32,000 nucleotides of DNA from Candidatus Jordarchaeales archaeon (lineage in GTDB: Archaea; Asgardarchaeota; Jordiarchaeia; Jordiarchaeales; Freyrarchaeaceae): the NCBI GenBank assembly GCA_038858525.1, contig JAWCFL010000019.1:5765-37764 (forward strand), in the 5' to 3' direction. A program made the position numbers and the translations under genes. The notes under the pieces are model-generated. The model was not told the DNA's origin. It saw nothing but the letters and a program-made list of their open reading frames with translations, and ran no database searches. Every line of letters starts with the position of its first letter. Positions within the stretch are counted from its first letter, which is position 1. Of this stretch, positions 6,989 through 25,671 are shown one piece after another.

Positions 6989-7618
6989 CTATCTTAGGTT
7001 TAAGTCCTCAGTCTCGGCTCGCTCTATGAGTCTTGCTGCAACGTTCAGCCCAGCCCTCAGAGCTGAGGGGCAGTCCTCCGCCGACACGACCAGAACTACA
7101 TCCCCCTCCTCCAACTCGAAGAACCCTCTAAGAAACGCCTCCTCGCCTCCGTCAAGCTCCTTAACGGAGGGCACAACAAGCCTTCCACCCTTAACTATGA
7201 CCGTGGTGGCGCCTCTCCCCCCACCGCTAATAGCCAGATCCCTCTCCTCAATTCCCCCAGAAATAAGGTGAGACAACCCTCTAAGCCTGAAACCGTAGTC
7301 GCACCTCCCAACGCTCAGGAAGCTCTCAGGCAGCCTCCTAAACTCAGCAATGTAACCCATAAGTTTCTCAACCACTAAGCGCCCCCTATCCGTCAACACA
7401 TGCCCCTTCCTTCCAGCCGGCCTAACAAGCCCAAGACGCTGAAGCCTGCGGAGCAACGTCCTAGCGGCAGCATCACCCAGCCCCAAAACATCCCTAACAA
7501 AGTAACGCCCCACAGGCTCCTCAGCGAGCAATAAAAGCACGCCCAGAATATCTCCCTCACGGAAACTGGGACGCACAGTTCTAGAAGCCAAAACCTCCCC
7601 AAAAAGCTCCCTAAACAA
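6989..7618 (-). CDS. Winged-helix protein with DUF4443/PH0730-like C-terminal domain (putative regulator)
   Basis: N-terminal wHTH (VGRYFVRDVLGLGDAAARTLLRRL...GHVLTDRG) and C-terminal GIEERDLAISGGGRGATT, typical of this archaeal family as I recall it. Confidence 0.7.
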   Translation of the reverse strand: MFRELFGEVLASRTVRPSFREGDILGVLLLLAEEPVGRYFVRDVLGLGDAAARTLLRRLQRLGLVRPAGRKGHVLTDRGRLVVEKLMGYIAEFRRLPESFLSVGRCDYGFRLRGLSHLISGGIEERDLAISGGGRGATTVIVKGGRLVVPSVKELDGGEEAFLRGFFELEEGDVVLVVSAEDCPSALRAGLNVAARLIERAETEDLNLR

Positions 7619-7840
7619 GTCAAACCCTCACCAAGAATCACTACGTCATATATTCTTGAGCAAGAAAAATAAAAGTTAATCGAAAAATTTTTCATTAGCA
7701 AAGAAAAACAAGACGGCGCTCAAAGTGGCGCTTCTAGGCAGTGGATCTAGACGCTAAAGGACCTCCGAAACGCTGAAGGAAATAAAAAATAAATAAGAGC
7801 AGGTGGTTGAAAGGGCGGGAAAAGTTGAGAGGCCTAAATA

Positions 7841-8842
7841 ATGGAGCCGCTATTGCTGGTTTCCCCGGTATTATCCTTCGTCGTCGCATTTATCCTTACG
7901 AGGAGGTGGATTCCAGTCGCCCACCGCGTGGGTATCGTTGGAAAAGACATGAACAAGCCGGGCAGACCCGAGGTTGCAGAGATGGGAGGCGTTCCCGTCT
8001 TTGCAGGCGTAGCGTCAGGCCTAATGTTCTACATAGCCATTAACTCCTTTGTTCTAAATCAGAGGTCGTTAAACCTTCCGCTCTTCGCCGCTCTATCCAC
8101 CATATTTATGATAACGATAGTCGGCATCATTGACGACTCGCTCGGCTGGAAGATCGGCCTCAAACAATGGCATAAACCCCTGCTAACCATACCGGCCGCC
8201 GTCCCAATGATGGCCGCCGGAGTCGGCATATCAATAATTTCGCTGCCGCTCGTAGGCACCATAGACCTAGGCTTGCTCTACCCCCTGCTGATCATCCCAA
8301 TAGGGATAGTTGGTGCGTCTAACGGCTTCAACATGCTCGCCGGATACAACGGCTTGGAGGCAGGCATGGGCGTAATAATACTGTCAGCCATGAGCCTATA
8401 CGCCTACGCCATGGGAGACAGCTGGGTGGCCATGATAGGCATTTCCACAATCGCCGCTCTCCTAGCATTTCTCTACTTCAACTGGTACCCTGCAAAGGTG
8501 TTCCCCGGCAACACCCTCACTTACATGGTTGGAGCCATAATGGCGTGCATGGCCATACTCGGCAACATGGAAAAACTAGCCCTCATACTTTTCATCCCCT
8601 ACTACATGGACTTCATACTGCCTCTTAGAGCAAAAATGAAGACTGAGGCTTTCGGAAAAGTAAACGAGGACGGGACACTAGACCAGCCATACAACAAGAT
8701 ATACGACGTAACTCACCTCTTCATACTCATAATAAAAAAAATTAAGAGAAGAGTGTACGAGAAAGACGTTACAGTAGGAGTTATACTCCTCGAGGCTTGC
8801 ATCGCCTCGGTGGCAACCATAACCTTCCTGTTACTATATTAA
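7841..8842 (+). CDS. aglH: UDP-GlcNAc:dolichol-phosphate GlcNAc-1-phosphate transferase (GT4/MraY-like, AglH/DPAGT1 type)
   Basis: GKDMNK, VAEMGG, GIIDD, NGFNMLAGYNGLEAG and KVFPGN motifs; multi-pass membrane protein. Confidence 0.88.
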   Translation: MEPLLLVSPVLSFVVAFILTRRWIPVAHRVGIVGKDMNKPGRPEVAEMGGVPVFAGVASGLMFYIAINSFVLNQRSLNLPLFAALSTIFMITIVGIIDDSLGWKIGLKQWHKPLLTIPAAVPMMAAGVGISIISLPLVGTIDLGLLYPLLIIPIGIVGASNGFNMLAGYNGLEAGMGVIILSAMSLYAYAMGDSWVAMIGISTIAALLAFLYFNWYPAKVFPGNTLTYMVGAIMACMAILGNMEKLALILFIPYYMDFILPLRAKMKTEAFGKVNEDGTLDQPYNKIYDVTHLFILIIKKIKRRVYEKDVTVGVILLEACIASVATITFLLLY

Positions 8843-12897: not shown

Positions 12898-13149
12898 ATG
12901 AATTTGAAGGACCTAATAAGAGAAGTGATCGAGCGCGGAATATACTATGAAGGCGCCATCATTCTGAAAAGCCTAGCCGAGAAATTACACGACATCGAGA
13001 AGGGTGAAGGAGACTGTGGAATTATCGAAGCCTTCGAAATAGGACTCCTCCTAGGCTCTCTGAGAAACCACCTCTTCTACGACGAGTATATTAAACTCGA
13101 AAACCTAGTTTTGGATTCTATCGAAAAATGCTTGCTGAGAAAGAAATAA
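12898..13149 (+). CDS. Small hypothetical protein (83 aa)
   Basis: Strong GAGGTGAGG RBS before the ATG; natural-looking helical composition; no family recognised. Confidence 0.7.
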   Translation: MNLKDLIREVIERGIYYEGAIILKSLAEKLHDIEKGEGDCGIIEAFEIGLLLGSLRNHLFYDEYIKLENLVLDSIEKCLLRKK

Positions 13150-13177
13150 AAATTAAGCATCAAGCAACAAAGTAACG

Positions 13178-13289
13178 AACCCCAAAAGAAATGACCGCAT
13201 AACCAGTTTGGCACGCTTTGAGGTTTGCTAGGGCTGCTGTGCTTAACAAGGCAACCCCAAAAGAAATGACCGCATAACCAGTTTGGCAC
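13178..13289. repeat. Two identical 37-bp direct repeats with a 38-bp unique spacer (mini-array geometry; CRISPR status unproven)
   Basis: AACCCCAAAAGAAATGACCGCATAACCAGTTTGGCAC at 13178-13214 and 13253-13289; spacer GCTTTGAGGTTTGCTAGGGCTGCTGTGCTTAACAAGGC. Confidence 0.9.
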
Positions 13290-13623
13290 CCGCTCGCACC
13301 CCAAACTAGCTTATCTTTCACCTCATCTTTCTCCTACCTCCTCATCAATCTCTCCGTCCATTTTTCGCCTCCGGCTTCATAGAGAATTAATGGTTAATTA
13401 TTAATGCCGTGCCAGCTTGTATAATGCTGAAAACCTACTGAAGGATCACATTAATTGATGACGTGGCTTGCTTACAGTCTCTAACGGCCCAGTCTTTCCT
13501 TCAAAGACACTGCTGGCTCTCGTGTTTTATCATTTATCTATAAATCTATCTTTTCCATTTATCAACACTTTTTTATTTAAGCACTATTAAGGGGGAGTCT
13601 AGAGGCGCTGGGGTTGACTGGTT

Positions 13624-14400
13624 GTGATGAAAATCGAGAGCATAACGATAATTGGAGGGTATGGGAAGTCTGGTTTACCTGAGCCAGTGAGGGAAGTGGA
13701 GCTTAGAAGAGGAGAAATTGTCAGCATTGTTGGCCCAACGGGCTCTGGGAAGACTACGTTGATAAACGACATAGAGATGTTTGCGTCTGGAGACACGCCG
13801 ACGAAGCGAAAAATACTTGTAAACGGTGGGGGGGTGCCGGAAGAGATTAGAAGTAGCCCTCATATTAACCCGATTGCCAGGATAACCCAGCACACGACCT
13901 TTCTGTCCGATCTTCCAGTTTACGATTTCCTGTCTATTCATGCAATGATCAGGCAGGATGGGGATGAGCGCTTAGTGAAAAGGACGCTGGACCTGGCAAA
14001 TCAATTGTCGGGTGAGAACATAGTGCCGAACATCCGTATGACTGAGCTGTCGGGCGGTCAGACGAGGGCCCTGCTCATTGCTGACGCTGTGGTCATCGGG
14101 AATACGCCGGTCGTTCTGATCGATGAGGTCGAGAACACGGGAATATATAAAGATAGAGCGCTGAAGATACTGAGAGAGTGCCAGAAGATGTTGATATTTG
14201 TGACGCATGACCCGCTGATTGCCTTATCCTCAGACCTCCGGATCGTTATGCGGAATGGTGCAATGGTGAAGGTTGTGAGGACGACTGAGGACGAGAAGGC
14301 TGTCCTGCAGGAAGTTAAAAGGCTGGACGACATCCTGAGCGAGTTGAGGGAGAACATAAGGCTTGGAAACCCGATTGGGCTCAAAAAGGTGGTAACGTGA
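13624..14400 (+). CDS. ABC-type ATPase with no adjacent permease
   Basis: Walker A GPTGSGKTT, Q-loop ITQH, signature LSGGQ, Walker B VVLIDE, atypical D-loop (VENTG), H-switch VTHD. Confidence 0.9.
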   Translation: MMKIESITIIGGYGKSGLPEPVREVELRRGEIVSIVGPTGSGKTTLINDIEMFASGDTPTKRKILVNGGGVPEEIRSSPHINPIARITQHTTFLSDLPVYDFLSIHAMIRQDGDERLVKRTLDLANQLSGENIVPNIRMTELSGGQTRALLIADAVVIGNTPVVLIDEVENTGIYKDRALKILRECQKMLIFVTHDPLIALSSDLRIVMRNGAMVKVVRTTEDEKAVLQEVKRLDDILSELRENIRLGNPIGLKKVVT

Positions 14401-15098
14401 AACTGGTTATTTGCGCAGGACCCCCATCCTCCGGAAAAACAGCAGTTTTAAAGTTTACATGTGAGAAACTTATCCGGAAGGGTTACAAAGTCGCGTATCT
14501 CAAAATAGATACCCAGTATGCGACGGAGGATGAAGTGTTTAGAGAAGCGCTCGGGATACCGACAAAGAAAGTGTATACTGGAGACCTGTGTCCCGACCAT
14601 GTGAACGTACTGGTTCTCGGAGACGGATTAGACTGGGCTAGGAGCATGGGCGCCGATATCTTCTTAGTTGAGTCTGCCGGGTTATGCTTGAGGTGTGCCC
14701 CCTACGTGGAAGGCGGGCTTGGCGTCGTCGTTCTAGAAGCTACAAGTGGCATCCAGCTGCCACTAAAACTCGGACCTCTACTCTCACTTGCAGACGTCGC
14801 TGTCATGACAAAGATAGACCTTGTTTCGCAAGCGGAGAGGGAGGTGTTCAGGGCTAGAATCAACGAGGTTGCTCCAGATGTGCACGTCATAGAGGCAGAC
14901 GCCCTACACGGAATAGGCATTGACCCCCTCGTGAGAAAGATAGAGAGATACCCCGAGCTCTCAGGGGAGCCCGTGCTAAGAGGCGTGCCCCCCCTCGGCG
15001 TTTGCACTATATGCGTTGGGAAGAAGGAAGTAGGATGGAATAAGCATTTCGGAATACTGAGAACTCTGGAAAGCGACCTGTTCTATCGGGGTGAATAA
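14397..15098 (+). CDS. G3E-family (HypB/UreG-like) metal-binding GTPase
   Basis: GPPSSGKT, CPDH (like UreG CPH), VESAG (ESxG Walker B), LCLRC, TKID (NKxD variant), C-terminal CTIC. GTGA overlap with the ATPase gene. Confidence 0.85.
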   Translation: MKLVICAGPPSSGKTAVLKFTCEKLIRKGYKVAYLKIDTQYATEDEVFREALGIPTKKVYTGDLCPDHVNVLVLGDGLDWARSMGADIFLVESAGLCLRCAPYVEGGLGVVVLEATSGIQLPLKLGPLLSLADVAVMTKIDLVSQAEREVFRARINEVAPDVHVIEADALHGIGIDPLVRKIERYPELSGEPVLRGVPPLGVCTICVGKKEVGWNKHFGILRTLESDLFYRGE

Positions 15099-15731
15099 AT
15101 GAGAAAAGAGGAGATCCTTAAGAGGCTGCAGAACAGAAATTGCGGAATGTGCGGCTTCGGCTCGTGCATCCGATTCGCAGAGGAAGCGGAAAAAAACGCT
15201 GGCCTACTAGAAAGGTGCATGTACCTGAAAGAGGACAGCGAGACGGAGGAAACTAGACACGCAGAGTACGCTGAAGAAGACATCATAGGCGGAAAGTACG
15301 ACTTCATCCTAATGCCGCTTCCAAACGAGAAATCATGCAGAGAGTTTATCTTACCATTCAACCCCATCCTCACACGGGAACTGGACATCAAGAAGGGCGA
15401 CATCATCGTCGGGAGACCAATGGGCCAAGGATGCCCAGTCCAACACGTGCTGGAAGTAATAGACATCGACAGGTTCTGCGTTATAACAGCCTGGGTCGTC
15501 GGCCCACAACACTCACGAAGCAGAGACTTCAAAGAGATCGGACCCTACAGCCTAGTCGCCTTCGAAGGCCTAGCAAAAGTAATGAGCCGAGAACCAATGT
15601 TCGGCCACCGACAACGATTCCTACCAGGATACTGCATGATGAACCTCACGCACACAGGACTAGTGAACTTCGTAAACAAAACAAAAAGAGGAATACACGT
15701 CAGACTAGAAGACATAATAATCGGAGTCTAA
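15099..15731 (+). CDS. Fe-S cluster-binding protein (N-terminal CxxCxxxxC...C domain)
   Basis: NCGMCGFGSC...C resembles the small Fe-S domain of RnfB/AcsC; further Cys in GCPVQH and GYCM; abuts the GTPase stop codon. Confidence 0.75.
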   Translation: MRKEEILKRLQNRNCGMCGFGSCIRFAEEAEKNAGLLERCMYLKEDSETEETRHAEYAEEDIIGGKYDFILMPLPNEKSCREFILPFNPILTRELDIKKGDIIVGRPMGQGCPVQHVLEVIDIDRFCVITAWVVGPQHSRSRDFKEIGPYSLVAFEGLAKVMSREPMFGHRQRFLPGYCMMNLTHTGLVNFVNKTKRGIHVRLEDIIIGV

Positions 15732-15810
15732 CCAACCAGCAACAACCCCCACACCATAAAACCACCACCAAGACAAGTTAACCTCACCTCTCGCCGAGAC
15801 CAGTGTGCCA

Positions 15811-15888
15811 AGAAAGAAATGAAAAATAAACATCAAACAACGAAATCATGAACCCCCAACCAAGACGAGACGCATAACTAGTTTGGCA
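15811..15888 (+). repeat. Degenerate ~80-bp copy of 13138-13214
   Basis: By-eye alignment: 38 of the first 46 nt identical without gaps (AGAAAGAAAT...GAACCCC); the 3' core CGCATAACTAGTTTGGCA matches the 37-bp repeat at 17/18. Confidence 0.8.
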
Positions 15889-16214
15889 TATGTCTACGCT
15901 CTAGTATTACTCATTCATCACCTCACTCATCCTCTCTGAAGCGCCCTCAGCAATTTCCCGCTCCCCCCTCCCCCACTCCCGGCTTCTCAGCCACGTAACC
16001 ACAATGCAAAGCCGCCACCCCACCTCTCTCTTCATTTCTTCCACCCACAAAAAGGCAAAAACAAAATTCCCCTCCAAAAATCATAAAAAAGCCACACATT
16101 TCAAGTGAGGCTACCAAACTCACAAAAATGAAGGATCTTCTCCGCAGAAAAACCACATCGAAAAAAATAAAAGAAACTTTTTCCACACATAATAAACCGA
16201 AAATAAATTACGGG

Positions 16215-17123
16215 ATGGGGGGAGCGGTGAAAAGACCTATAGCGGTTTTTCTCCTAGCACTCTCATTTACATTGCTGCTCCTAGCAGCCCCAGCCACACC
16301 ACCCATAGCAACACCACCCACACTAACAACAGCAACACCGCAACAAACACCACAACCAAAAGAAACACAAACAGAAGCAATTTCTGTTGGTATACTACTT
16401 AGTCCCAGCGGTTTCCCGTTCTCGATGGTCAGTTTCAGATTCCATGTTGGGCCGATTCTGAGCATTAATCCTCCTCCAGAGAAATTTGAAAACCTCACAC
16501 ATGCCTCGATCTCAATTAACGCTTTTGACAGTAGCCTTTACGCGTTCATCGGTGTGGATTTTGTGAATGTGGACGAGAACTATTGTATGACTGCGTTGGT
16601 TGAGCTCGCCGAACAAATGCTAGACAAACTCTCAACAATAGGAATAACACAACAGTCAAACTTAACTCACGTGTACACGGAGAACTCTACTGTTCGTGGA
16701 TCTTGCCAGGTTTTCCTTTCTGGTGACGCTTCTAGTTTGGCTTCTCTGATTCCGGATGGGACGCTTGCACGTAAATTCATGGAAACCTACACGAACAAAA
16801 GCATAAGTTGCAGCATAATTTCCTCCTCCGGGAGCCTAAAAGTTGTCGACAGTGCTGGCGTGTCAACCTTTTCCGTATGGAATATTCTAACAAACAGCAC
16901 TTTCGGCGACATCATGGCTGTAAACTTCTCGTTGAAAAAAGCCCTAAACACCACAGGAGAAATCAAACTAAACAGAACAACGACCATACTAATTTCAGGA
17001 AGCTACTATGCTGCCCCTCACTCGATGTCTCTTGTAGCGATTGGCTTTGACCCTCGTCCATCATTCCTTTTGAGTAGCAACTTTTTCTTCTACAATTTCT
17101 CCGCTGGATCGGTAATAAGGTGA
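16215..17123 (+). CDS. N-terminal part of a secreted, S-layer-like glycoprotein (frameshifted at ~17117)
   Basis: Signal peptide KRPIAVFLLALSFTLLLLAAPA, Pro/Thr/Gln-rich linker, many NxS/T sequons. Start at ATG 16215 or GTG 16227 (purine-rich RBS), not 16128. Confidence 0.7.
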   Translation: MGGAVKRPIAVFLLALSFTLLLLAAPATPPIATPPTLTTATPQQTPQPKETQTEAISVGILLSPSGFPFSMVSFRFHVGPILSINPPPEKFENLTHASISINAFDSSLYAFIGVDFVNVDENYCMTALVELAEQMLDKLSTIGITQQSNLTHVYTENSTVRGSCQVFLSGDASSLASLIPDGTLARKFMETYTNKSISCSIISSSGSLKVVDSAGVSTFSVWNILTNSTFGDIMAVNFSLKKALNTTGEIKLNRTTTILISGSYYAAPHSMSLVAIGFDPRPSFLLSSNFFFYNFSAGSVIR

Positions 17124-18630
17124 TGTTAGTGTTCTCTTCGCCGCATCGCCCCCTACAGACTGTGAAGTGTCCCTCGTGTTCCCAGACCCAATAACGAACT
17201 CACTGATGATCAGCTCACAAGTGGCCACCTTTAACAAAACTCTGCCATTCGTAGACTTCTCCAATTCAAGCACTTTTCAGAACCTCACAGGTTACAGCAT
17301 CAGCGTGAATTATCTCTCCCGATTGTACTATCCCATGTTCACTGAACTCTCGGACTTCTACAGAACAATCTTCCCAGAAATCTTCCCAGAAATTGAAGAA
17401 ATAGAAATCGCTCAATCGTTGTTATCCCTGCTATCTCAAAGGTCGATAGTGACTGTGAACATAGTTGTAGCGTTCTCGAATGTGAATGAAACGTATTGCG
17501 ATAACGCATTGAACGACTTGGCTAACCAGATAAAAAGCAAGTTTTCGGCAACCCCAATATACGAAACAAAGAATATCTCTGCAGATTTCAATTGGGTGAA
17601 TGGAATGTATATTTTTATTTTCGGTGAGGAGGCTGCTTCAGAGCTGTTTAAACTCGTCCCGGAGGGGACCATTATACAGTTGTCTCTTAACTCCGGAGTT
17701 CCAATGATGTTCTCAGTCTTCTCTATAGGTAATATTATTGGAAATGATATTTTTAATATGACTATGTTTACTGGTGATGCTCTTTTTGAAGGTGGGCTTT
17801 CTGGTAGTCTTGGCGGTGAGTTTAGCTTTTCATTGCGGGGTGTCTTGAACGCTTCAAGTGGCTTCACGTTAAGCTTACCGACGGTCGTCGTCACCCACTC
17901 GCCCGGCAACCTCACAGATTACACCCAAAATGTCCCTGTTATTGCTACGTCTACGCCAAACTTCTTCTCTGTGGCGTGGTACCTCGCCTCCGGGTCGGGG
18001 CTGGACCTATATGTGCGCTTCTCCTGCGATCTACGTTATACCTCTGGGTTCAGGTCGTGGGAACTTCCAGACCCTGGAGCCTATGAGCTTAGCTTCGAGC
18101 AAGCCCTCACCAGCATGACGGTTAACGTGAGCGCGCCTGTCAGGCTTAACGCTTCCCTCACGACGGAGAACCCGGTCGGGGCTAGCGTGGATGCGTTGGC
18201 TGACGGGGCGTCTAAGGATGCCGGCTTCCTAGGGTGGTTTGCCTGCATTGAGGTCAACAATTCGGCAGCTCTACAAGAGATAACGCTGACGGTATACTAC
18301 TACGACGAGGAGGTTGAGGCTGCGGGACTAAAAGAAGAAACACTCTCACTATACTACTGGAATGGATCAGCATGGGTCAAAATAGAATCAACAGTCGACA
18401 CCCAGAGGAACACCATAACAGCCAGAGTAAACCACACAACATATTTCGCAATAATAGGTGAGAAGGCGGTAGCAGCACCACCAATTAATTTGCAGCTCTT
18501 CTTGCTCCTCCAGCTGCTCCAGTTGATGTCGGGTAGGTCGACGCTTCTGCTCGTGGTGACGTCTGGAGGCGTAGTCATAGCGGCTGTGGCGTTGGCACTG
18601 CTAATCATGAGAAGGCGTAGATTCACCTAA
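17119..18630 (+). CDS. C-terminal part of the same surface glycoprotein, with membrane anchor
   Basis: Frame open from 17119 with no signal peptide. Contains a second copy of the N-terminal domain, a beta-rich LSLYYWNGSAWV...ITARVNHTTYFAI module seen in archaeal surface proteins, and a hydrophobic anchor with an RRRR tail. Confidence 0.75.
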   Translation, partial: GDVSVLFAASPPTDCEVSLVFPDPITNSLMISSQVATFNKTLPFVDFSNSSTFQNLTGYSISVNYLSRLYYPMFTELSDFYRTIFPEIFPEIEEIEIAQSLLSLLSQRSIVTVNIVVAFSNVNETYCDNALNDLANQIKSKFSATPIYETKNISADFNWVNGMYIFIFGEEAASELFKLVPEGTIIQLSLNSGVPMMFSVFSIGNIIGNDIFNMTMFTGDALFEGGLSGSLGGEFSFSLRGVLNASSGFTLSLPTVVVTHSPGNLTDYTQNVPVIATSTPNFFSVAWYLASGSGLDLYVRFSCDLRYTSGFRSWELPDPGAYELSFEQALTSMTVNVSAPVRLNASLTTENPVGASVDALADGASKDAGFLGWFACIEVNNSAALQEITLTVYYYDEEVEAAGLKEETLSLYYWNGSAWVKIESTVDTQRNTITARVNHTTYFAIIGEKAVAAPPINLQLFLLLQLLQLMSGRSTLLLVVTSGGVVIAAVALALLIMRRRRFT

Positions 18631-19023: not shown

Positions 19024-20160
19024 CTAACTCGAGGCGATTTTTTCCGCTAGAACGCGCCCCCTGTATGCCACCCAGTACTCTTCATCCCTTTCACCCTGGC
19101 GTATCTTCGAAGCCTCAACTCTTGATGCTCTAAGCAACAGCTCAGCTCTCTGCAGCTCTCCTCCCTGAAGAGCGATGAAGAGGAGCTTAACCAGCTCAAC
19201 AGCCCTGTCGTGAACCCTGTCCCCGACCGCCGGCGTGAGAGCTCCTTGAAGCAGCCACCTCAAAAATTTAGACGCGTTCTCATCTTCTCTAATTTTCCTC
19301 AGCGCCCTACCCGACCTAGCAATGAATGAACCCAAAGGAAGATAGTATGACACGCCGATCTCCGCCGCCTTCTGTCCTCCCGGGTCCTTCATGCTTACGA
19401 GTATGATGTCTGGAGCGTCGTCGGGCACGAGCATGGCAAGCCACAATATAACGGCCTCCTCAGGTCTTAACCCTGGAGGTAGCCCCCAGCCCTCCTCTTG
19501 AGAGAGGCACTCAACCAGCCGTCTGAAGACCAGGGGGTTTGCTCCAATGTCGTAAGGAAAGACGTGCAGCGTGTGCCATGCCTGTTGTCCTCCTCCTGCC
19601 TCATACTTCACTCTTCCACACCTTGAAAGCACGTACCCCGCCAGCAGAATCATGAAGTAATCCAGGTTCACCTTTGCGTCGTACTTTTCTTTACCTTTCA
19701 TGAAGGGCGCTCGTGAAAGAGCATATTGCTCCGGCTTGAATATGCTGGGAAGCGAAAACTCCCCCTTCCCGAAACGGGAGAAGGCGGCGGCAGTGTCCTG
19801 CGGCTTATAGCTTCTAAGCTCATTGGAGTAGGCGGTTAGCGCGTCAAGGAACGAGCTCCCCTCCGGCAAAGAGAGTCTCTTCATAAGTGATGCGAATATT
19901 TTCTTGTCGTTGCCTGATGCTGGAATTTCGACTCCCTTCCAGCGTTCGTGGTACCTTTTTAGTGTGAGGGTGGCTTGACTAATTCCGCCTGCGAGGAGTT
20001 CAGCCACGCTTCCCGCGGTCGTGCGAATCTCTAAACGGTCACCATAGACAGCCGTGCTCTCAATTTTTCCCCTCTCAAGGAAGGAGATGAATGTTAGCAT
20101 GTAGTACCTTGCTACTCCCGGAGGCAAAACAATACTGCCTCTTTTCTCATCCAGCATCAC
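19024..20160 (-). CDS. cas8a: Type I-A Cascade large subunit, Cas8a2/Csa4-like (or CsaX-like)
   Basis: Last gene of a csa5-cas7-cas5-cas3'-cas3'' operon, matching the type I-A order in crenarchaea; 378 aa. Call rests mainly on position; the sequence is divergent. Confidence 0.6.
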   Translation of the reverse strand: MMLDEKRGSIVLPPGVARYYMLTFISFLERGKIESTAVYGDRLEIRTTAGSVAELLAGGISQATLTLKRYHERWKGVEIPASGNDKKIFASLMKRLSLPEGSSFLDALTAYSNELRSYKPQDTAAAFSRFGKGEFSLPSIFKPEQYALSRAPFMKGKEKYDAKVNLDYFMILLAGYVLSRCGRVKYEAGGGQQAWHTLHVFPYDIGANPLVFRRLVECLSQEEGWGLPPGLRPEEAVILWLAMLVPDDAPDIILVSMKDPGGQKAAEIGVSYYLPLGSFIARSGRALRKIREDENASKFLRWLLQGALTPAVGDRVHDRAVELVKLLFIALQGGELQRAELLLRASRVEASKIRQGERDEEYWVAYRGRVLAEKIASS

Positions 20161-20873
20161 ACCACCTCCTCGATCTCCTCTATAAACGCTCTTCTCACCT
20201 CATTCACCTCCCCTCTTCGTCTAGCATCCAAGTTATCGGCTATTATCAAGGGGTTCATGACGAGCACGTAGAGCTTCAACCACTTCTCAACCCTATTCAT
20301 CTTCCTCACCCCATTAATCCACGAGTAGAAACTACTAACATCCTCGCCTCTCAAAACGGCTCCCCTCAAGTTAACGTTGAACTTTTCGAACGTAGACGGG
20401 AGATCCCCTTCACAGAACCCTTCCTTCACTATGCCGAGCACCTTGCCTCTGTCGTCGCCCTCCGAAATCATCTTGAATGGGTTTCTCATCGCGTGATGGT
20501 GGTTTAAAACGCTTAGAACAACCAGAACCTTTTCCACACTCGCCCACTTGGGCTGGGTGCTGAGAAACTTGTAGCACATAGCGGCGGACGCAACTTCGTG
20601 ATATTGAAACCCAACTCTGTTAGAGGAACAATTATCGTCAAACCTTTTCTGAAAGTAGTTGTATGCTTTTCCGACGTCGTGGAACAGGACGGCCAGTCTA
20701 GCCATCTCCTCAACCTTCTCCGGCTCAACGGTTCTCTCTCCGAGGGCTGCCCTAATCCTCCTAGAGGCAACCTCGAAGTAGCCCTGATTCTTTCTCGTGA
20801 AGGCTTCCAGCATGCTGAGGCAGCCTTCAATATGGCTTGTCAGGGGTTGCCCGACGAAGGCGCACGGCTTCAA
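20157..20873 (-). CDS. cas3'': CRISPR-associated HD nuclease Cas3''
   Basis: SHIEGC, LFHDVGKA (HD), HEVASA, NHHH and IIADNLDA motifs; coupled to cas3'. Confidence 0.93.
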   Translation of the reverse strand: MKPCAFVGQPLTSHIEGCLSMLEAFTRKNQGYFEVASRRIRAALGERTVEPEKVEEMARLAVLFHDVGKAYNYFQKRFDDNCSSNRVGFQYHEVASAAMCYKFLSTQPKWASVEKVLVVLSVLNHHHAMRNPFKMISEGDDRGKVLGIVKEGFCEGDLPSTFEKFNVNLRGAVLRGEDVSSFYSWINGVRKMNRVEKWLKLYVLVMNPLIIADNLDARRRGEVNEVRRAFIEEIEEVV

Positions 20874-22549
20874 TCGCTAACCCCCACATACCCTACTTCG
20901 CGGTCTATCTCGTCCAGAACTATGCCCTCATAGTTGTTCCTAAGAAGCTCTAGCGACAAGTTGTTTGCCCTCAAAAGCGCCCTCCTACTCCTCTCGTCTA
21001 GAGCCTCTATCCTTCCGTCCTTGACGACGTTTGCCCCATGCATTATCGCCTTTCTCGCCATGTTCTCCGATAATCCCACGGCGTTCTGCAGGTAGCTTCC
21101 GTTATTAACGTCCTCAGCGGCGAAAGCAGACACGATGCCGAAGGAAGCCGTCAATCCACCGACAGCCTCGATGAGCCTCCTTGCATCTTGCGCCGTAAGG
21201 AAGGGGTAAGCGTCCAAGTCTCCGAGCAGCCGTCCAAAGACCTCAAACTGCTGGTCGAGCTTCCCTACGCGCTCCTCACAGTAAACCTCACTCATCACCG
21301 CCCTGACTTCGTCCTCAACCTTACTCCTCGGACGGAAGTCATCATGCCCCTCAATAAGTCTCCAGGTCGCATCTATCACGTTTTTATCGTAGACCCCACT
21401 CGAGACCTGCTTGACGACCACGACTTCCCCCTCATAGTGCTCTTCCTTCCTAGCGACGCGCCCCATTCTCTGCAGGAGCCTGTCAGGCGGACAAACCTCG
21501 GTCACGAGCACATCAAAGCTCTCATCTATCCCGGCCTCGACAACCTGTGTGGCGACCAGTGTTTTAGCCCTCCCAAGCTCCTTAGCCCTCTCCCTCTTAA
21601 CTGACTCCGGTAGTCTCCCGTGAAGAAGAACGGAGTTGACGCCCCTACTCCTCAGTTCCCTATAAACCTCAACGGCAGCCTTCACGGTGTTCAGCACTAT
21701 GAGCACCCTTTTACCTTGCCCGCAGTAGCCTACGGCCGCATCCAAGACGCCGCCCTCCCACACGGTTAACTTAATCCTCTTCCTTCTCCTCTCCTCCTCG
21801 AACTGCGGGTCTTTCTCTGGGGAGTAAGCTTCCTCCTCAAACTTCAAGCCGAAGCTTTCCACCTGCCTCTTCAGGAAGTCCTTGAGTGCTCTAGGCATTG
21901 TCGCAGTCATGACTACTGTGGGAACGCCGACGCTGGCCATTTGGATTATAGCCCTCGTAGCCGCATAGAGCGCTTTGGCTTCATCGTCGAAGGAGGGGAA
22001 ATCGCCAGTAGAAGACGGCTGGAGAAGGTGGAATTCGTCGAAGACAACGAGTGAAGAGTAAATGTTCCCTCTTGGAAACTCGTAGTGCGACACGTCATAC
22101 TTGAAGAGCTTCGCCAGCTCGCAAGCTGGAGCCTTGTAGAAGTTGAGCATAAACGTGTCGAGCGTGACGACAACGCATTTCTTCGCGAAGAATGGTGAGC
22201 CCGGGGACCCCATATGCTGTATACCGACCACGCCGGGGTAATATCCGAGCTTCTCCATCCATTTGCGCAGTCTTCCACCTAAGTCGTCAGCTATCGTCCT
22301 CATGGGGAGAACGTGTATCACCCTTGAGAAGAAGGGGTTCCCGTCAACCGCCACCTTGGCTAGCGCGAGCGTCATAGCGGACTTACCATACCCCGCCGGG
22401 TACTCCATGAAAACTACGCCGTTTTCGCCGTTGCTAAAAAGACAGTCGAGCCTTTCAAGTACCCTTGAAACTCCAAGCCTCACTCTCCACTTCGCTCCCT
22501 CCAATGCCCTGCACACTTTTTCATACTCGTCTCGGAGCGACTCAGCCAT
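20870..22549 (-). CDS. cas3': CRISPR-associated SF2 helicase Cas3'
   Basis: PAGYGKS, HVLPMR, TLDTF, DEFH, MTAT, LLHGR, QVVEAGID and QRMGRVAR motifs. Start placed at ATG 22549 (MAESLR), overlapping the cas5 stop; the ORF track starts at 22594. Confidence 0.95.
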   Translation of the reverse strand: MAESLRDEYEKVCRALEGAKWRVRLGVSRVLERLDCLFSNGENGVVFMEYPAGYGKSAMTLALAKVAVDGNPFFSRVIHVLPMRTIADDLGGRLRKWMEKLGYYPGVVGIQHMGSPGSPFFAKKCVVVTLDTFMLNFYKAPACELAKLFKYDVSHYEFPRGNIYSSLVVFDEFHLLQPSSTGDFPSFDDEAKALYAATRAIIQMASVGVPTVVMTATMPRALKDFLKRQVESFGLKFEEEAYSPEKDPQFEEERRRKRIKLTVWEGGVLDAAVGYCGQGKRVLIVLNTVKAAVEVYRELRSRGVNSVLLHGRLPESVKRERAKELGRAKTLVATQVVEAGIDESFDVLVTEVCPPDRLLQRMGRVARKEEHYEGEVVVVKQVSSGVYDKNVIDATWRLIEGHDDFRPRSKVEDEVRAVMSEVYCEERVGKLDQQFEVFGRLLGDLDAYPFLTAQDARRLIEAVGGLTASFGIVSAFAAEDVNNGSYLQNAVGLSENMARKAIMHGANVVKDGRIEALDERSRRALLRANNLSLELLRNNYEGIVLDEIDREVGYVGVSD

Positions 22550-23378
22550 AACCAACCACGACCTCGCCGTTAACCTCGAATGCCTGTCCCTCATTTAGAA
22601 GGGAAACCTTAACCTCTCCACTCATCAATGGGACCCTTGACCCCGGAACAATATATTCTTCATACTTCAAAGCCACATTTCTACCCCATCCTCCGCTCCA
22701 GAAAGCTTCTCTGTAGTAATTTCCCTCCTCAACGTTTCCAAGCCTTGCTGGGAAGTAGTATCGCGTCACTACAACCCTGTCCTTGATGGGTTTTGCCTTA
22801 GAAACGAGGACTTCATCGACGGATACTATGGACTCCCTGCTTCCAACCCTCGTCATCTGCCAAGCAGCCTTTCTCAGCTCGTCCTCGAGATTTCCAGCCA
22901 CAACCTCTTTCGCCTCCTCTTTAACCAGCAAGACCATAGAAACCCTCCCGGAAGGATAGTAGACCTTCCCGACGGGCAAAGCCCCCATCCTATACTTCAT
23001 CAGGTACCTCCGCCCCCCAACCGCCTCCTCTTCATTAGTATCCTTCACGGTCTCCTGAAATAGAAGAGTCACACACTTGCTTAAGTCATCCCACATGTAG
23101 CCGAAGGAGTGTGCGGAGTCAAAGCGTGCAGCAGCGTAAATATATTCCTCCAGTAGCCCAGCTGGGCTCATGAGTCCCCTTTCTGAGTCGAAGACCACAT
23201 CCCCCTCCTGCCTCATGCCGCGGAAAGACAGAACCCCCTTTCTGGCCAGGGGGTAAGCTAGAGCCCCAACGATAGTTGTCGGGGGCGGTATGGGGAGAGT
23301 GCCCTGAAACTTGCTCGTGCCCGGCTCCCTCACCCAGAAGCCCCAATGGTAACACGCCCTAACAGTCAAAGCCAGCAT
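22542..23378 (-). CDS. cas5: Type I-A Cas5
   Basis: N-terminal HWGFWVREP...TLPIPPPTTIVGALA and C-terminal MTRVGSRESIVSV Gly-loop, typical of Cas5a. Confidence 0.9.
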   Translation of the reverse strand: MLALTVRACYHWGFWVREPGTSKFQGTLPIPPPTTIVGALAYPLARKGVLSFRGMRQEGDVVFDSERGLMSPAGLLEEYIYAAARFDSAHSFGYMWDDLSKCVTLLFQETVKDTNEEEAVGGRRYLMKYRMGALPVGKVYYPSGRVSMVLLVKEEAKEVVAGNLEDELRKAAWQMTRVGSRESIVSVDEVLVSKAKPIKDRVVVTRYYFPARLGNVEEGNYYREAFWSGGWGRNVALKYEEYIVPGSRVPLMSGEVKVSLLNEGQAFEVNGEVVVGYG

Positions 23379-23422
23379 GAAACCCCTCCAACATTCACCC
23401 TGACGACAAAAAAGGGGTGGTG

Positions 23423-24457
23423 CTACGAGGCCTTCCCTTTCACCGCCGCGACGACACGCTTTAGGAACTCTTCCAGATTCCCCGAGACGTCGACGCCCTC
23501 AACTTTCTCAATGGCTTTCTCCTTATCCATGGCGAACAGCAAGACCCCGGCTCCATCCTCCTTCTCTCCTTTTCGCAACTCCCTCATGAGAGCCTCGAAG
23601 CTGCTCTTCCTGCTAACCGTCTCCTCTATGAATTTCTTCGAGTTCCCCGGAGAGACCACGAAGAAGGTGTTCCTCGATACTGCTGCGATAGCTGAGAGTG
23701 GCTCCATGTTTGGCAAAAACCTGCTCCTCTTCGCCCCAAACCTCAACTGAGTTAGGAAAATGCTCAGCGCTGAAAGAGCAGCCGTCACACGCTTCTCCTT
23801 CTCATTCTCAAGCTGCTTCTCCAGCTTCTCATCCCTTTCGCCGAAGCTCGTCGACGGCTTAGCTATTTGCGAGATGTCCATGTTCAACGTGAAAGTGTAA
23901 ACTGCAGATCCAACCTCGACATTGTAGGGCTGCTGCAAACTCATGAGTGACGGTGTAAACCTGACATGGAATTGCGCCTCGAGGGCGGCGGCCTCAACCT
24001 CGAACACTGCGGGAACCATGTAGCCTACTTGGAACGTGGAAGTCCTCTTAACCGGGTACCTGCCAGCGTAGAGGAAGCCTCCAACATCACACACGTAGTC
24101 CCTCAGCATTATTTCGACTTCAGCCCTGCGTATCTCACGCTCGCTCCCCGGAACCTTCACCCCATACTTCTCCAAGAAGCTCTCGTCCGCGAACTTTATG
24201 AACTCCCCCCTCTCGGACTCCTCGCTCAGCGGCAGCCCAACCCTCTTAGCCTCCTCGACGAGGTGAACCTGGTAGGCGTGCGCGAGAGACTCGCCGGAAA
24301 CCGTGGGCACAAACCTTATAGAGTAACCTCCATCCCCGCTTGGAACAACTATGGGCGCCGTCCTGTGCCTGACGAGGTTGCCAACGGTCTCAACGCTGTT
24401 AAGGCTCTCCAGGTTAACCAAAACCCTGAAAGCTATACTCAGAAACGCGTCAGCCAC
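23423..24457 (-). CDS. cas7: Type I-A Cas7 (Csa2/DevR family)
   Basis: ESLNSVETVGNLVRHR, VSGESLAHAYQ, CDVGGFL, VKRTSTFQVGY, EAQFHVR and FGAKRSRFLP. Start placed at GTG 24457 with a GGAGGTGG RBS. Confidence 0.95.
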   Translation of the reverse strand: MADAFLSIAFRVLVNLESLNSVETVGNLVRHRTAPIVVPSGDGGYSIRFVPTVSGESLAHAYQVHLVEEAKRVGLPLSEESERGEFIKFADESFLEKYGVKVPGSEREIRRAEVEIMLRDYVCDVGGFLYAGRYPVKRTSTFQVGYMVPAVFEVEAAALEAQFHVRFTPSLMSLQQPYNVEVGSAVYTFTLNMDISQIAKPSTSFGERDEKLEKQLENEKEKRVTAALSALSIFLTQLRFGAKRSRFLPNMEPLSAIAAVSRNTFFVVSPGNSKKFIEETVSRKSSFEALMRELRKGEKEDGAGVLLFAMDKEKAIEKVEGVDVSGNLEEFLKRVVAAVKGKAS

Positions 24458-24471
24458 ACAACCACCTCCAA

Positions 24472-24897
24472 TCACGCAGACCTCCTAGAAGCGGCAGACA
24501 AACAAGATGCAACCATCGACATAGCGTAGCTAGCCACGCTCCTAGCCAACCTCACATCCTTCGAAGCAGCCTCCAGAAACATCCTCACCTGCTCGTTGTC
24601 CGCAAGGTAGCCATCCACCACGTACTCCTCCTCATCAATTATCACGCGTACCCTGGTGAGCTCCCTTCCACCGCCCTCAAACTTCTCCTCACAAACACCC
24701 TGCCGCCCTCCACTATCGCGGTACCTTCTCAAAAGGTTCTCGAGAATCCTGGCATTCTCGTAGATAGCCCTGCTAACACTGTCAATGGAGAGAGCGTTAG
24801 CAACCCTATCGATCACGGAGTAGCTTTTCGATGCAACGCAAACGACAGCCAGAGAAGTCGCAACCCCCCTATACTTCGAAAGCTCAATAGCTTGCAT
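24472..24897 (-). CDS. csa5: Type I-A small subunit Csa5 (Cas11)
   Basis: First gene of the operon; SYSVIDRVANALSIDSVSRAIYE resembles Csa5; 141 aa. Confidence 0.82.
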   Translation of the reverse strand: MQAIELSKYRGVATSLAVVCVASKSYSVIDRVANALSIDSVSRAIYENARILENLLRRYRDSGGRQGVCEEKFEGGGRELTRVRVIIDEEEYVVDGYLADNEQVRMFLEAASKDVRLARSVASYAMSMVASCLSAASRRSA

Positions 24898-25026
24898 AAA
24901 CGATCCCTCGAATTCGATCTAACGGCTGTCTCCACTTATATATTTTTCTATGAAGCGGAAAAATTTTAATTTAGTGAAACAAAAGTAAAATATGAAGTCG
25001 GAGTTTCATTATGACGAAACAAGCTG
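24898..25026. promoter_or_regulatory. Divergent csa5/csa3 promoter region with palindromes
   Basis: TATA-like TTATATAT at 24936-24943, perfect palindrome TCGAATTCGA at 24908-24917, and GTTTCA-N6-CGAAAC at 25003-25020. Confidence 0.55.
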
Positions 25027-25671
25027 GTGGGGTTATTGGCGAGAACGGGTAAAGGCACAGCGATAGTTGCGTCTTTGGGTTTCGAGGAGAGGTTCCTCTT
25101 AAGGGCAGTCATAAGAAGAGGAGTCAAGGAAAACGACAAGATAGTAGTTATAATGCCCGAGAAGGGGGACCCGCGAGGAGAGAAAGCCTTCCAAACGCTG
25201 AAAGAACTGTTAGACAAAGCCTTCCCCCAAATAGAGCTAATCAAGCACGAGGTGAACGTCCAAGACTTCTACGGTGCCATCAGCAACCTCAGAAACCTTC
25301 TAAACAAGCTAAACCTAGAAAACAACATAGTACTCAACCTAAGCGGCGGCCAAAGACTTCTAATACTCGAAATACTGGCGGCCGCACTAAGCCTGGGAAT
25401 CAACGCGGAGCTGGAAATCGAGACAGAGGACTCCTCCGTTTACCTAACAATCCCAATAAAAACCATGCACCAGTTAAAGCTAGACCGGATAGACCAAGAA
25501 ATACTGAGAAAGGTCGCCGAAAGAGGCGAAATAAGACTCAAAGACTTGGAGGAGCTAAAAATACCGAAAGCTACCTTGTGGAGGAAGCTAAACAGGCTAA
25601 CAGAAGACGGCCTCCTCGAAAAGGACAGGGACAGGTACAAGCTAAGCGACATAGGGCGAGCATGGATGTAA
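25027..25671 (+). CDS. csa3: CRISPR locus transcription regulator Csa3 (CARF + wHTH)
   Basis: IVASLGFEERFLLR, VLNLSGGQRLLIL (CARF motif), C-terminal HTH IPKATLWRKLNRLTEDGLL...YKLSDIG; divergent from csa5. Confidence 0.92.
   Translation: MGLLARTGKGTAIVASLGFEERFLLRAVIRRGVKENDKIVVIMPEKGDPRGEKAFQTLKELLDKAFPQIELIKHEVNVQDFYGAISNLRNLLNKLNLENNIVLNLSGGQRLLILEILAAALSLGINAELEIETEDSSVYLTIPIKTMHQLKLDRIDQEILRKVAERGEIRLKDLEELKIPKATLWRKLNRLTEDGLLEKDRDRYKLSDIGRAWM

Follow-up and report, generated by a model that had tools for sequence, protein, structure and literature searches.

We describe a three-gene unit, hereafter the trio, found in a 32,000-nucleotide stretch of DNA (the window) from a Candidatus Jordarchaeales archaeon (GenBank assembly GCA_038858525.1, contig JAWCFL010000019.1, positions 5,765 to 37,764). 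It encodes an ATP-binding cassette (ABC)-type ATPase, a G3E-family GTPase and an iron-sulfur (Fe-S) protein of the COG2000 type. The trio is a real, widely conserved module that has already been noted in print but is uncharacterised, and the window holds a further copy of it, in an Asgard genome. Its real context, missed by an earlier reading of the window (the original prediction), is the genes of coenzyme M (CoM) and sulfonate biosynthesis. From the gene unit, its motifs, folds, conservation and genomic association, all of which are established here, we infer a client, a metal and a reaction. It is quite possible, without being probable, that the trio is an accessory to sulfonate biosynthesis, serving the coenzyme M pathway in archaea and, in Bacillota, the branch to sulfolactate through ComA and ComB, as a module driven by nucleoside triphosphates (NTP) that would handle metal and sulfur and feed a sulfite-dependent step.

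The three-gene unit in the window

The genes of the trio and the putative promoter in front of them are as follows.

13624..14400, plus strand: ABC-type ATPase gene (258 aa; GTG start, ATG next at 13627)
14397..15098, plus strand: G3E-family GTPase gene (233 aa)
15099..15731, plus strand: COG2000 Fe-S protein gene (210 aa)
13570..13581, plus strand: TATA-like A/T-rich box TTTTTATTTAAG, about 45-55 nt 5' of the first start codon, read from the sequence

The original prediction of three translationally coupled genes can be followed in the sequence itself: in the GTGA at 14397-14400 the ATPase stop TGA (14398-14400) overlaps the GTPase start GTG (14397-14399), and the GTPase stop TAA (15096-15098) abuts the ATG of the Fe-S gene (15096-15101). 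The box TTTTTATTTAAG is likely to be an archaeal promoter; a scan for sigma-70 promoters and intrinsic terminators, which is not applicable to an archaeon, gave nothing above shuffled sequences.

Conservation of the trio

To follow the unit beyond the window, we scanned one genome per species with a pattern for relatives of the Fe-S protein, and 308 of the 490 matches in species genomes encode such a relative. Neighbourhoods were analysed for the best 80 of these 308 loci, with the flanking open reading frames (ORFs) clustered. All three genes are present near full length within 4 kb in 73 of the 80, and the shortfall in the other 7 lies mostly at contig ends. The order ATPase-GTPase-FeS is kept in 72 of the 73 complete loci, the exception being one deltaproteobacterial metagenome-assembled genome (MAG). 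Together with nine loci fetched later and the window itself, the complete loci number 83, and across these the pairwise distance matrices of the three proteins are correlated (r = 0.89-0.94), so that the predicted co-conservation of the three genes is upheld. The trio in the window is 74-78% identical to that of ANME-1 and 45-57% identical to those of the other 79 loci, and in a concatenated tree it is sister to the ANME-1 copy.

Two apparent variants were set aside. Long ORFs in GC-rich methanogens that seemed to fuse the ABC and GTPase genes are two genes in different frames, and the recoding suggested by stop codons in some COG2000 matches is most likely an alignment overrun upstream into the stop of the preceding gene.

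In a literature search, 'COG2000' appears in one biological paper only, the paper on MMP16 (PLoS Genet 2025, PMC12068725), whose Fig 2 legend places an ATPase, a Ni2+-binding GTPase and a COG2000 Fe-S protein beside CoM genes and states that their 'putative role remains unknown'. The statement in the original prediction that no function had been assigned is thus correct and the function is unpublished, but the co-localisation of the trio with CoM genes is already in print. The link to ComA in bacteria and the variant with a cysteine desulfurase, both described below, are not in that paper.

Sulfonate and coenzyme M genes beside the trio

The commonest neighbour of the trio, in 35 of the 80 loci, is a protein with COG1900 and ferredoxin parts that corresponds to MMP16, the CoM synthase (TIGR03287, 492 bits vs 364). 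A 428-aa pyridoxal phosphate enzyme occurs in 31-32 of the loci, its homologues beside the trio in two later genomes scoring as cysteate synthase, and a fused sulfopyruvate decarboxylase (ComDE) occurs in 26. The arrangements differ between lineages. Methanomicrobiales and Methanomassiliicoccales have trio-MMP16-cysteate synthase-ComDE, a Methanosarcinales MAG has trio-MMP16-ComA-ComB-...-ComDE, and a more distant group of Halobacteriota has cysteate synthase-trio-ComD-ComE with MMP16 on the opposite strand. Loci fetched later add cysteate synthase-trio and a helix-turn-helix regulator followed by trio-cysteate synthase-ComDE, while in ANME-1 MMP16 is the sole CoM gene next to the trio. Peptococcia (Bacillota) show the order ComA-ComB-trio, and the bacterial carriers include non-methanogens such as heliobacteria and Pelotomaculum.

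One archaeal lineage, which we take to be probably Methanocellales (McrA-positive in 3 of 5 genomes), has the trio beside sufCB, iscU and thiF. In two of its genomes an insert of about 1.2 kb separates the GTPase and COG2000 genes; in one locus (L090, 8965-10128) the insert is a cysteine desulfurase gene, and in the other (L096, about 7504-8713) it is known by position only. A gene for a zf-AN1 protein also lies near the trio with the desulfurase, among sufCB, iscU and thiF.

The co-occurrence of the trio with these enzymes was counted in samples in which related genomes are not independent. Among 201 Halobacteriota, 44 encode the Fe-S protein and 94 encode MMP16, with MMP16 in 37 of the 44 carriers vs 57 of the 157 non-carriers (odds ratio 9.3), and all seven carriers that lack MMP16 have cysteate synthase. 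Among 151 Bacillota_B, ComA is present in 13 of 14 carriers (93%) vs 48 of 137 non-carriers (35%) (p = 3e-5, not corrected for phylogeny). ComA is present in each of the three Asgard carriers, of which one (G364) lacks MMP16. Taking only the carriers that were tested explicitly for ComA and for cysteate synthase, 24 of 26 encode at least one of the two, and many are without MMP16. ComDE and a true MMP16 are both missing from five bacterial carriers, and therefore the partner common to archaeal and bacterial carriers is a sulfite-using enzyme and not the CoM synthase. The common denominator is an enzyme that adds sulfite to a C3 acceptor, rather than the CoM synthase or any nickel enzyme.

The three proteins

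The GTPase matches PF02492 (39.1 bits, cut-off 20.7) and its AlphaFold model (pLDDT 83.5) finds UreG (4hi0_E) and HypB (2hf8) as the best folds (TM 0.74-0.77, E about 1e-11). Its invariant residues include the Walker A motif GxxxxGKT (G8-K14-T15), E92-x-A-G95, in which E92 is the Glu of G3E proteins, and T138-K-x-D141. With these motifs, the Pfam match and the top structural matches it is a member of the G3E family. The original prediction had called it UreG/HypB-like and had listed CPDH, LCLRC and CTIC, and the comparison agrees: the sequence contains CPDH, GLCLRC and, at the C-terminus, CTIC, with Cys and His residues that do not vary among 20 homologues. Against the equivalog models it scores 53 bits for HypB (TIGR00073, cut-off 121.2) and 29.6 bits for UreG (TIGR00101, cut-off 204.2), and the trio has neither hyp nor ure neighbours in the 83 loci; by these measures the GTPase does not count as HypB or UreG proper. 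The invariant residues of metal-binding type are C65, H68, C97, C100, C203, C206 and H217, giving a Cys/His-rich interface and a C-terminal CxxC...H tail. The protein keeps the interface ligands of UreG and HypB and has an extra CxxC besides the tail, so that a metal or Fe-S centre probably sits between the subunits of a GTPase dimer.

The third protein was predicted to contain an Fe-S domain of the form CxxCxxxxC..C, and this is borne out by a match to PF04060 (23.3 bits, cut-off 23, a marginal score) and by the motif Cx2Cx4Cx16C, whose four residues C15, C18, C23 and C40 are invariant in 19 homologues. In the model (pLDDT 88.8) a [4Fe-4S] domain of the CoFeSP/RnfB type (residues 1-45) is followed by a beta-rich conserved C-terminal domain (65-210). 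The N-terminus aligns with the CoFeSP large subunit (4djd_C, residues 7-48), and the identity to Rnf (9eri_B) is 23%. In the same 19 homologues the C-terminal domain has 44 invariant columns, including two Cys, two His and five Arg (C112, H116, C179, H185, R81, R106, R140, R171 and R202). With this pattern of invariant residues the domain looks like an enzyme: the Cys2His2 set and the five Arg would suit an oxyanion, and the many invariant charged residues suggest a small-molecule site and not a mere carrier. A search of the PDB for the C-terminal domain gave no convincing match to a solved structure (Foldseek best E 0.085; VIA-align against 48,161 chains best Z 3.6), a search of the ESM Atlas with the whole COG2000 protein returned its own family only, and no fusion of the C-terminal domain was seen among proteins of 369-2000 aa, which is weak evidence. 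We claim neither a structural relative nor a new fold for this domain.

The ATPase matches PF00005 (55.7 bits, cut-off 25) and consists of one nucleotide-binding domain (NBD) and a C-terminal tail of about 40 aa, with no transmembrane domain. Its motifs are Walker A GPTGSGKT, Q89 in the Q-loop, LSGGQ, Walker B VVLIDE with the catalytic Glu, and the H-loop THD, and these catalytic motifs are conserved in 41 homologues; the D-loop reads VENTG instead of SALD. The full set of ABC motifs and the variant D-loop are thus as predicted. The best NCBIfam and PDB matches are NBDs of importers, at only about 50 bits, far under every equivalog cut-off. The absence of a membrane partner, also predicted, holds across the survey: across the 83 loci the trio has no membrane-protein family as a conserved neighbour, and none is adjacent in the window; a distant permease is possible. 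A complete ABC transporter, with a permease encoded with the NBD or fused to it, is therefore lacking at the trio loci. SufC models fall outside the best 25 of the 151 NCBIfam matches of the ATPase and the operon has no SufB/D gene; no direct comparison with SufC was made.

A possible role in sulfonate biosynthesis

How the trio could serve a sulfite-dependent step may be pictured as follows. A dimer of the GTPase would bind a metal or Fe-S centre on the invariant C65/H68/C97/C100 interface and the CxxC...H tail. The GTPase, with the ATPase as a clamp or motor, would then load or remodel a Cys2His2-ligated centre in the Arg-rich C-terminal domain of the COG2000 protein, whose N-terminal [4Fe-4S] domain would link that centre to carriers at the ferredoxin level. 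On the simplest reading the Fe-S protein would be the client or working end of the two NTPases, and once loaded it would make or hand over an inorganic sulfur species for ComA or cysteate synthase. Sulfite, formed from sulfide or persulfide, would be the most likely species. An input of sulfur to the trio is supported by the variant with a cysteine desulfurase, and the oxidation of sulfide to sulfite with low-potential acceptors should be thermodynamically uphill, which would give a reason for the use of NTP. A stronger version of this proposal, which we hold to be unlikely, makes the trio the missing anaerobic sulfite source or hand-over system. The COG2000 protein would then be a small metal or Fe-S enzyme of a new kind, whose oxidation of sulfide, or of persulfide from cysteine, would supply ComA or cysteate synthase with sulfite, and the hydrolysis of ATP and GTP would pay for the assembly of the centre or for uphill electron transfer.

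Several points weigh against a role in sulfonate biosynthesis. The functional evidence for it is all guilt by association. The trio is absent from 57 of the 94 MMP16-positive Halobacteriota, and it is therefore dispensable for CoM synthesis in many methanogens. Two bacterial MAGs carry the trio with neither ComA nor cysteate synthase, in the window no sulfonate gene is linked to it, and within the genus of the window it is unstable, being reduced to a remnant in one genome and lying at another locus in another. We know of no ABC or G3E NTPase that drives sulfide oxidation, and a protein of 210 aa would be a very small catalyst for a reaction of four to six electrons. Carriers that reduce sulfate or sulfite, such as Desulfotomaculaceae, should also need no extra source of sulfite.

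The alternative that survives best, possible if on the unlikely side, is a general trafficking of sulfur or Fe-S clusters, in which persulfide from a cysteine desulfurase, or sulfide, would be turned into clusters or sulfane sulfur for several clients, the sulfonate enzymes being one group of users. The desulfurase inside the operon with IscU, SufCB and ThiF alongside, in the probable Methanocellales lineage, fits such a role, as do the five invariant Cys and two invariant His of the GTPase with its CxxC tail; the cluster carriers Mrp and Nbp35 have a similar tail. However, trafficking leaves unexplained both the repeated embedding of the trio in CoM operons and the enrichment of ComA among carriers in Bacillota (93% vs 35%), the ATPase shows no specific affinity to SufC among the best 25 of its 151 NCBIfam matches, and the invariant charged residues of the COG2000 C-terminal domain suggest a small-molecule site over a carrier.

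We consider it quite unlikely that the trio is a maturase, sulfur donor or reductase dedicated to MMP16 (the COG1900-type CoM synthase), installing its cluster or supplying sulfur and electrons for the conversion of sulfoacetaldehyde to CoM. MMP16 is the most frequent immediate neighbour, stands alone among CoM genes beside the trio in ANME-1 and is encoded by 37 of the 44 carriers in Halobacteriota. Yet the five bacterial carriers mentioned above have no true MMP16 or ComDE, seven carriers in Halobacteriota and the Asgard genome G364 have the trio without MMP16, and the 57 MMP16-positive genomes without the trio show the reverse.

The original prediction had proposed a dual-NTPase chaperone for a metallo- or Fe-S client and had named nickel enzymes (ACS/CODH, hydrogenase or an Mcr-like enzyme) as systems against which to check it. 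The co-evolving unit and the G3E fold are upheld, but the nickel-enzyme clients are not supported. A chaperone inserting nickel (or cobalt or zinc) into hydrogenase, carbon monoxide dehydrogenase/acetyl-CoA synthase (CODH/ACS) or an Mcr-like reductase would agree with the G3E fold, with the UreG-like CP(D)H motif and with the words 'Ni2+ binding GTPase' in the legend of PMC12068725, which are an annotation label only. Against it, the 83 loci show no conserved hyp, ure, cdh/acs or mcr neighbour of the trio, the genome of the window (92.7% complete) yielded no McrA, non-methanogens are among the bacterial carriers, and the HypB and UreG equivalog scores are far below their cut-offs; we reject this client as very improbable. 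Equally improbable is that the trio forms the cytoplasmic part of an ABC transporter, for sulfonates for example, with its permease encoded elsewhere: the ATPase has importer NBDs as its best sequence matches and a conserved Q-loop, and one locus has a gene for an SsuA-like NMT1_2 binding protein nearby, but in the 83 loci the trio has neither a permease nor a binding protein as a conserved neighbour, the ATPase gene is translationally coupled to those of two soluble metal proteins, and its D-loop is a variant one. Both the nickel-enzyme client and the transporter are thus unlikely.

To our knowledge, two steps of CoM biosynthesis have no settled biochemical basis in organisms that live with sulfide, namely the source of the sulfite used by ComA or cysteate synthase and the route of sulfur to the thiol-forming step; a literature search on the source of sulfite, together with coenzyme M and methanogens, found nothing. 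The trio lies in the CoM operons of several methanogen orders, follows ComA in bacteria that are not methanogens and is joined by a desulfurase in one lineage, and it is therefore the most concrete unassigned candidate for one of these steps. If the sulfonate role is true, it would give the G3E GTPases and the permease-less ABC ATPases a new type of client, and a function to the COG2000 domain, which has no solved structural relative. The interest of the system would be high only if the reading as a sulfite source is confirmed.

The genome of the window and mobility of the trio

The window adds a copy of the trio in an Asgard genome that encodes the whole CoM pathway and in which no McrA was found. 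This genome measures 2.09 Mb and is 92.7% complete, it encodes a true, eukaryote-like actin (466 bits), and the closest named relative of its COG2000 protein is in a Jordarchaeales MAG (84% identity). The CoM genes, all on contigs other than that of the trio, and the actin gene lie at the following places.

Contig C35, 240-1717: ComA and ComB
Contig C13, 26666-27728: ComD and ComE
Contig C7, 24800-26047: MMP16
Contig C32, 12338-13447: actin

ComA, ComD, ComE and MMP16 score above the NCBIfam cut-offs, and ComB is recognised only by family-level models, below cut-off. The host thus seems to be an Asgard archaeon able to make coenzyme M but lacking methyl-CoM reductase, and the whole pathway without a detected McrA fits a published prediction for Jordarchaeia, in which CoM serves as methyl carrier in the absence of Mcr and no methane is made (PMC9723677). 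In an unexpected pairing, the MMP16 gene on contig C7 (L083, 6529-9048) immediately follows an ACR3 arsenite efflux gene, both genes reading in the same direction.

Within the genus of the window the trio behaves as a movable cassette. Among 41 genomes sampled from the phylum, three have the trio and seven have MMP16. At the syntenic site of one genome of the same genus (G361; L097, C40, 2081-2393) there is only a frameshifted remnant of the ATPase gene of about 107 codons, and in another (G360; L099, C2, 6217-8557) the trio is complete but sits 142 kb away from the syntenic flank. The homology of this second copy to the window is limited to 13562-15733, and since it begins at 13562 the promoter-like stretch travels with the genes. 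What looks like a split GTPase gene in G360 is a scaffolding artefact, a run of N with duplicated flanks, and not a disruption. In the window, the trio is bracketed by two copies of a degenerate direct repeat.

13133..13214, no strand assigned: left copy of the direct repeat of about 85 nt (repeat search families D1 and D2, 62-80% identity)
15806..15889, no strand assigned: right copy, from the same repeat search

The left copy begins inside the 3' end of an upstream ORF of 83 aa and is itself marked by a perfect duplication of 37 nt (13178-13214 = 13253-13289), 38 nt apart.

In the window the trio has as neighbours genes for glycosyltransferases and surface proteins, and a type I CRISPR-Cas operon. 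Two adjacent ORFs at 16128-18630, one for an Asn/Ser/Thr-rich protein with a signal peptide and one for a protein with a C-terminal membrane anchor, may be a single surface protein split by a frameshift. The CRISPR-Cas interference operon (Cas3 HD, Cas3 helicase, Cas5 and others; 19024-25671, minus strand) lies about 3 kb downstream of the trio and appears to be unrelated to it.

Comparison with known systems

The GTPase resembles UreG and HypB in fold (TM 0.74-0.77 to 4hi0_E, 2hf8 and 5xkt) and in its Walker A, ExxG glutamate and (N/T)KxD motifs, and its Cys-Pro-x-His motif stands at the position of the CPH of UreG. It differs from both in being just 22-24% identical and below both equivalog cut-offs, in two additions, a CxxC at about the place of the interface Cys of HypB and a CxxC...H tail at the C-terminus, and in having no urease or hydrogenase genes around it.

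Like SufC of the SufBC2D complex, the ATPase is a permease-less single NBD encoded with metal and sulfur proteins, and its neighbours in one archaeal lineage include sufCB, iscU and a cysteine desulfurase gene. Unlike SufC, it has no SufB/D-like partner in its operon, and in the lineage with the desulfurase a separate canonical sufC-like gene precedes sufB. A second soluble ABC-type ATPase that supports a low-potential redox step in the cofactor chemistry of methanogens is component A2 (AtwA) of methyl-CoM reductase activation. A2 has two NBDs and acts together with McrC and Mmp proteins, whereas the trio ATPase has one NBD, the trio is linked to none of these partners of A2, and the genome of the window yielded no McrA.

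The Fe-S protein shares the PF04060 motif Cx2Cx4Cx16C with the CoFeSP large subunit (AcsC/CdhE) and with RnfB, but its [4Fe-4S] domain is fused to a beta-rich domain of 145 residues and not to a TIM-barrel, corrinoid or ferredoxin module.

The closest system is the trio of PMC12068725. The copy in the window differs from it in standing alone, with no physical linkage to sulfonate or CoM genes, in an Asgard genome that yielded no McrA and has its CoM genes on other contigs. It is nevertheless composed of the same three families, all three homologues adjacent and in the same order, and the surveyed loci reproduce the published neighbourhood with MMP16, cysteate synthase and ComDE.

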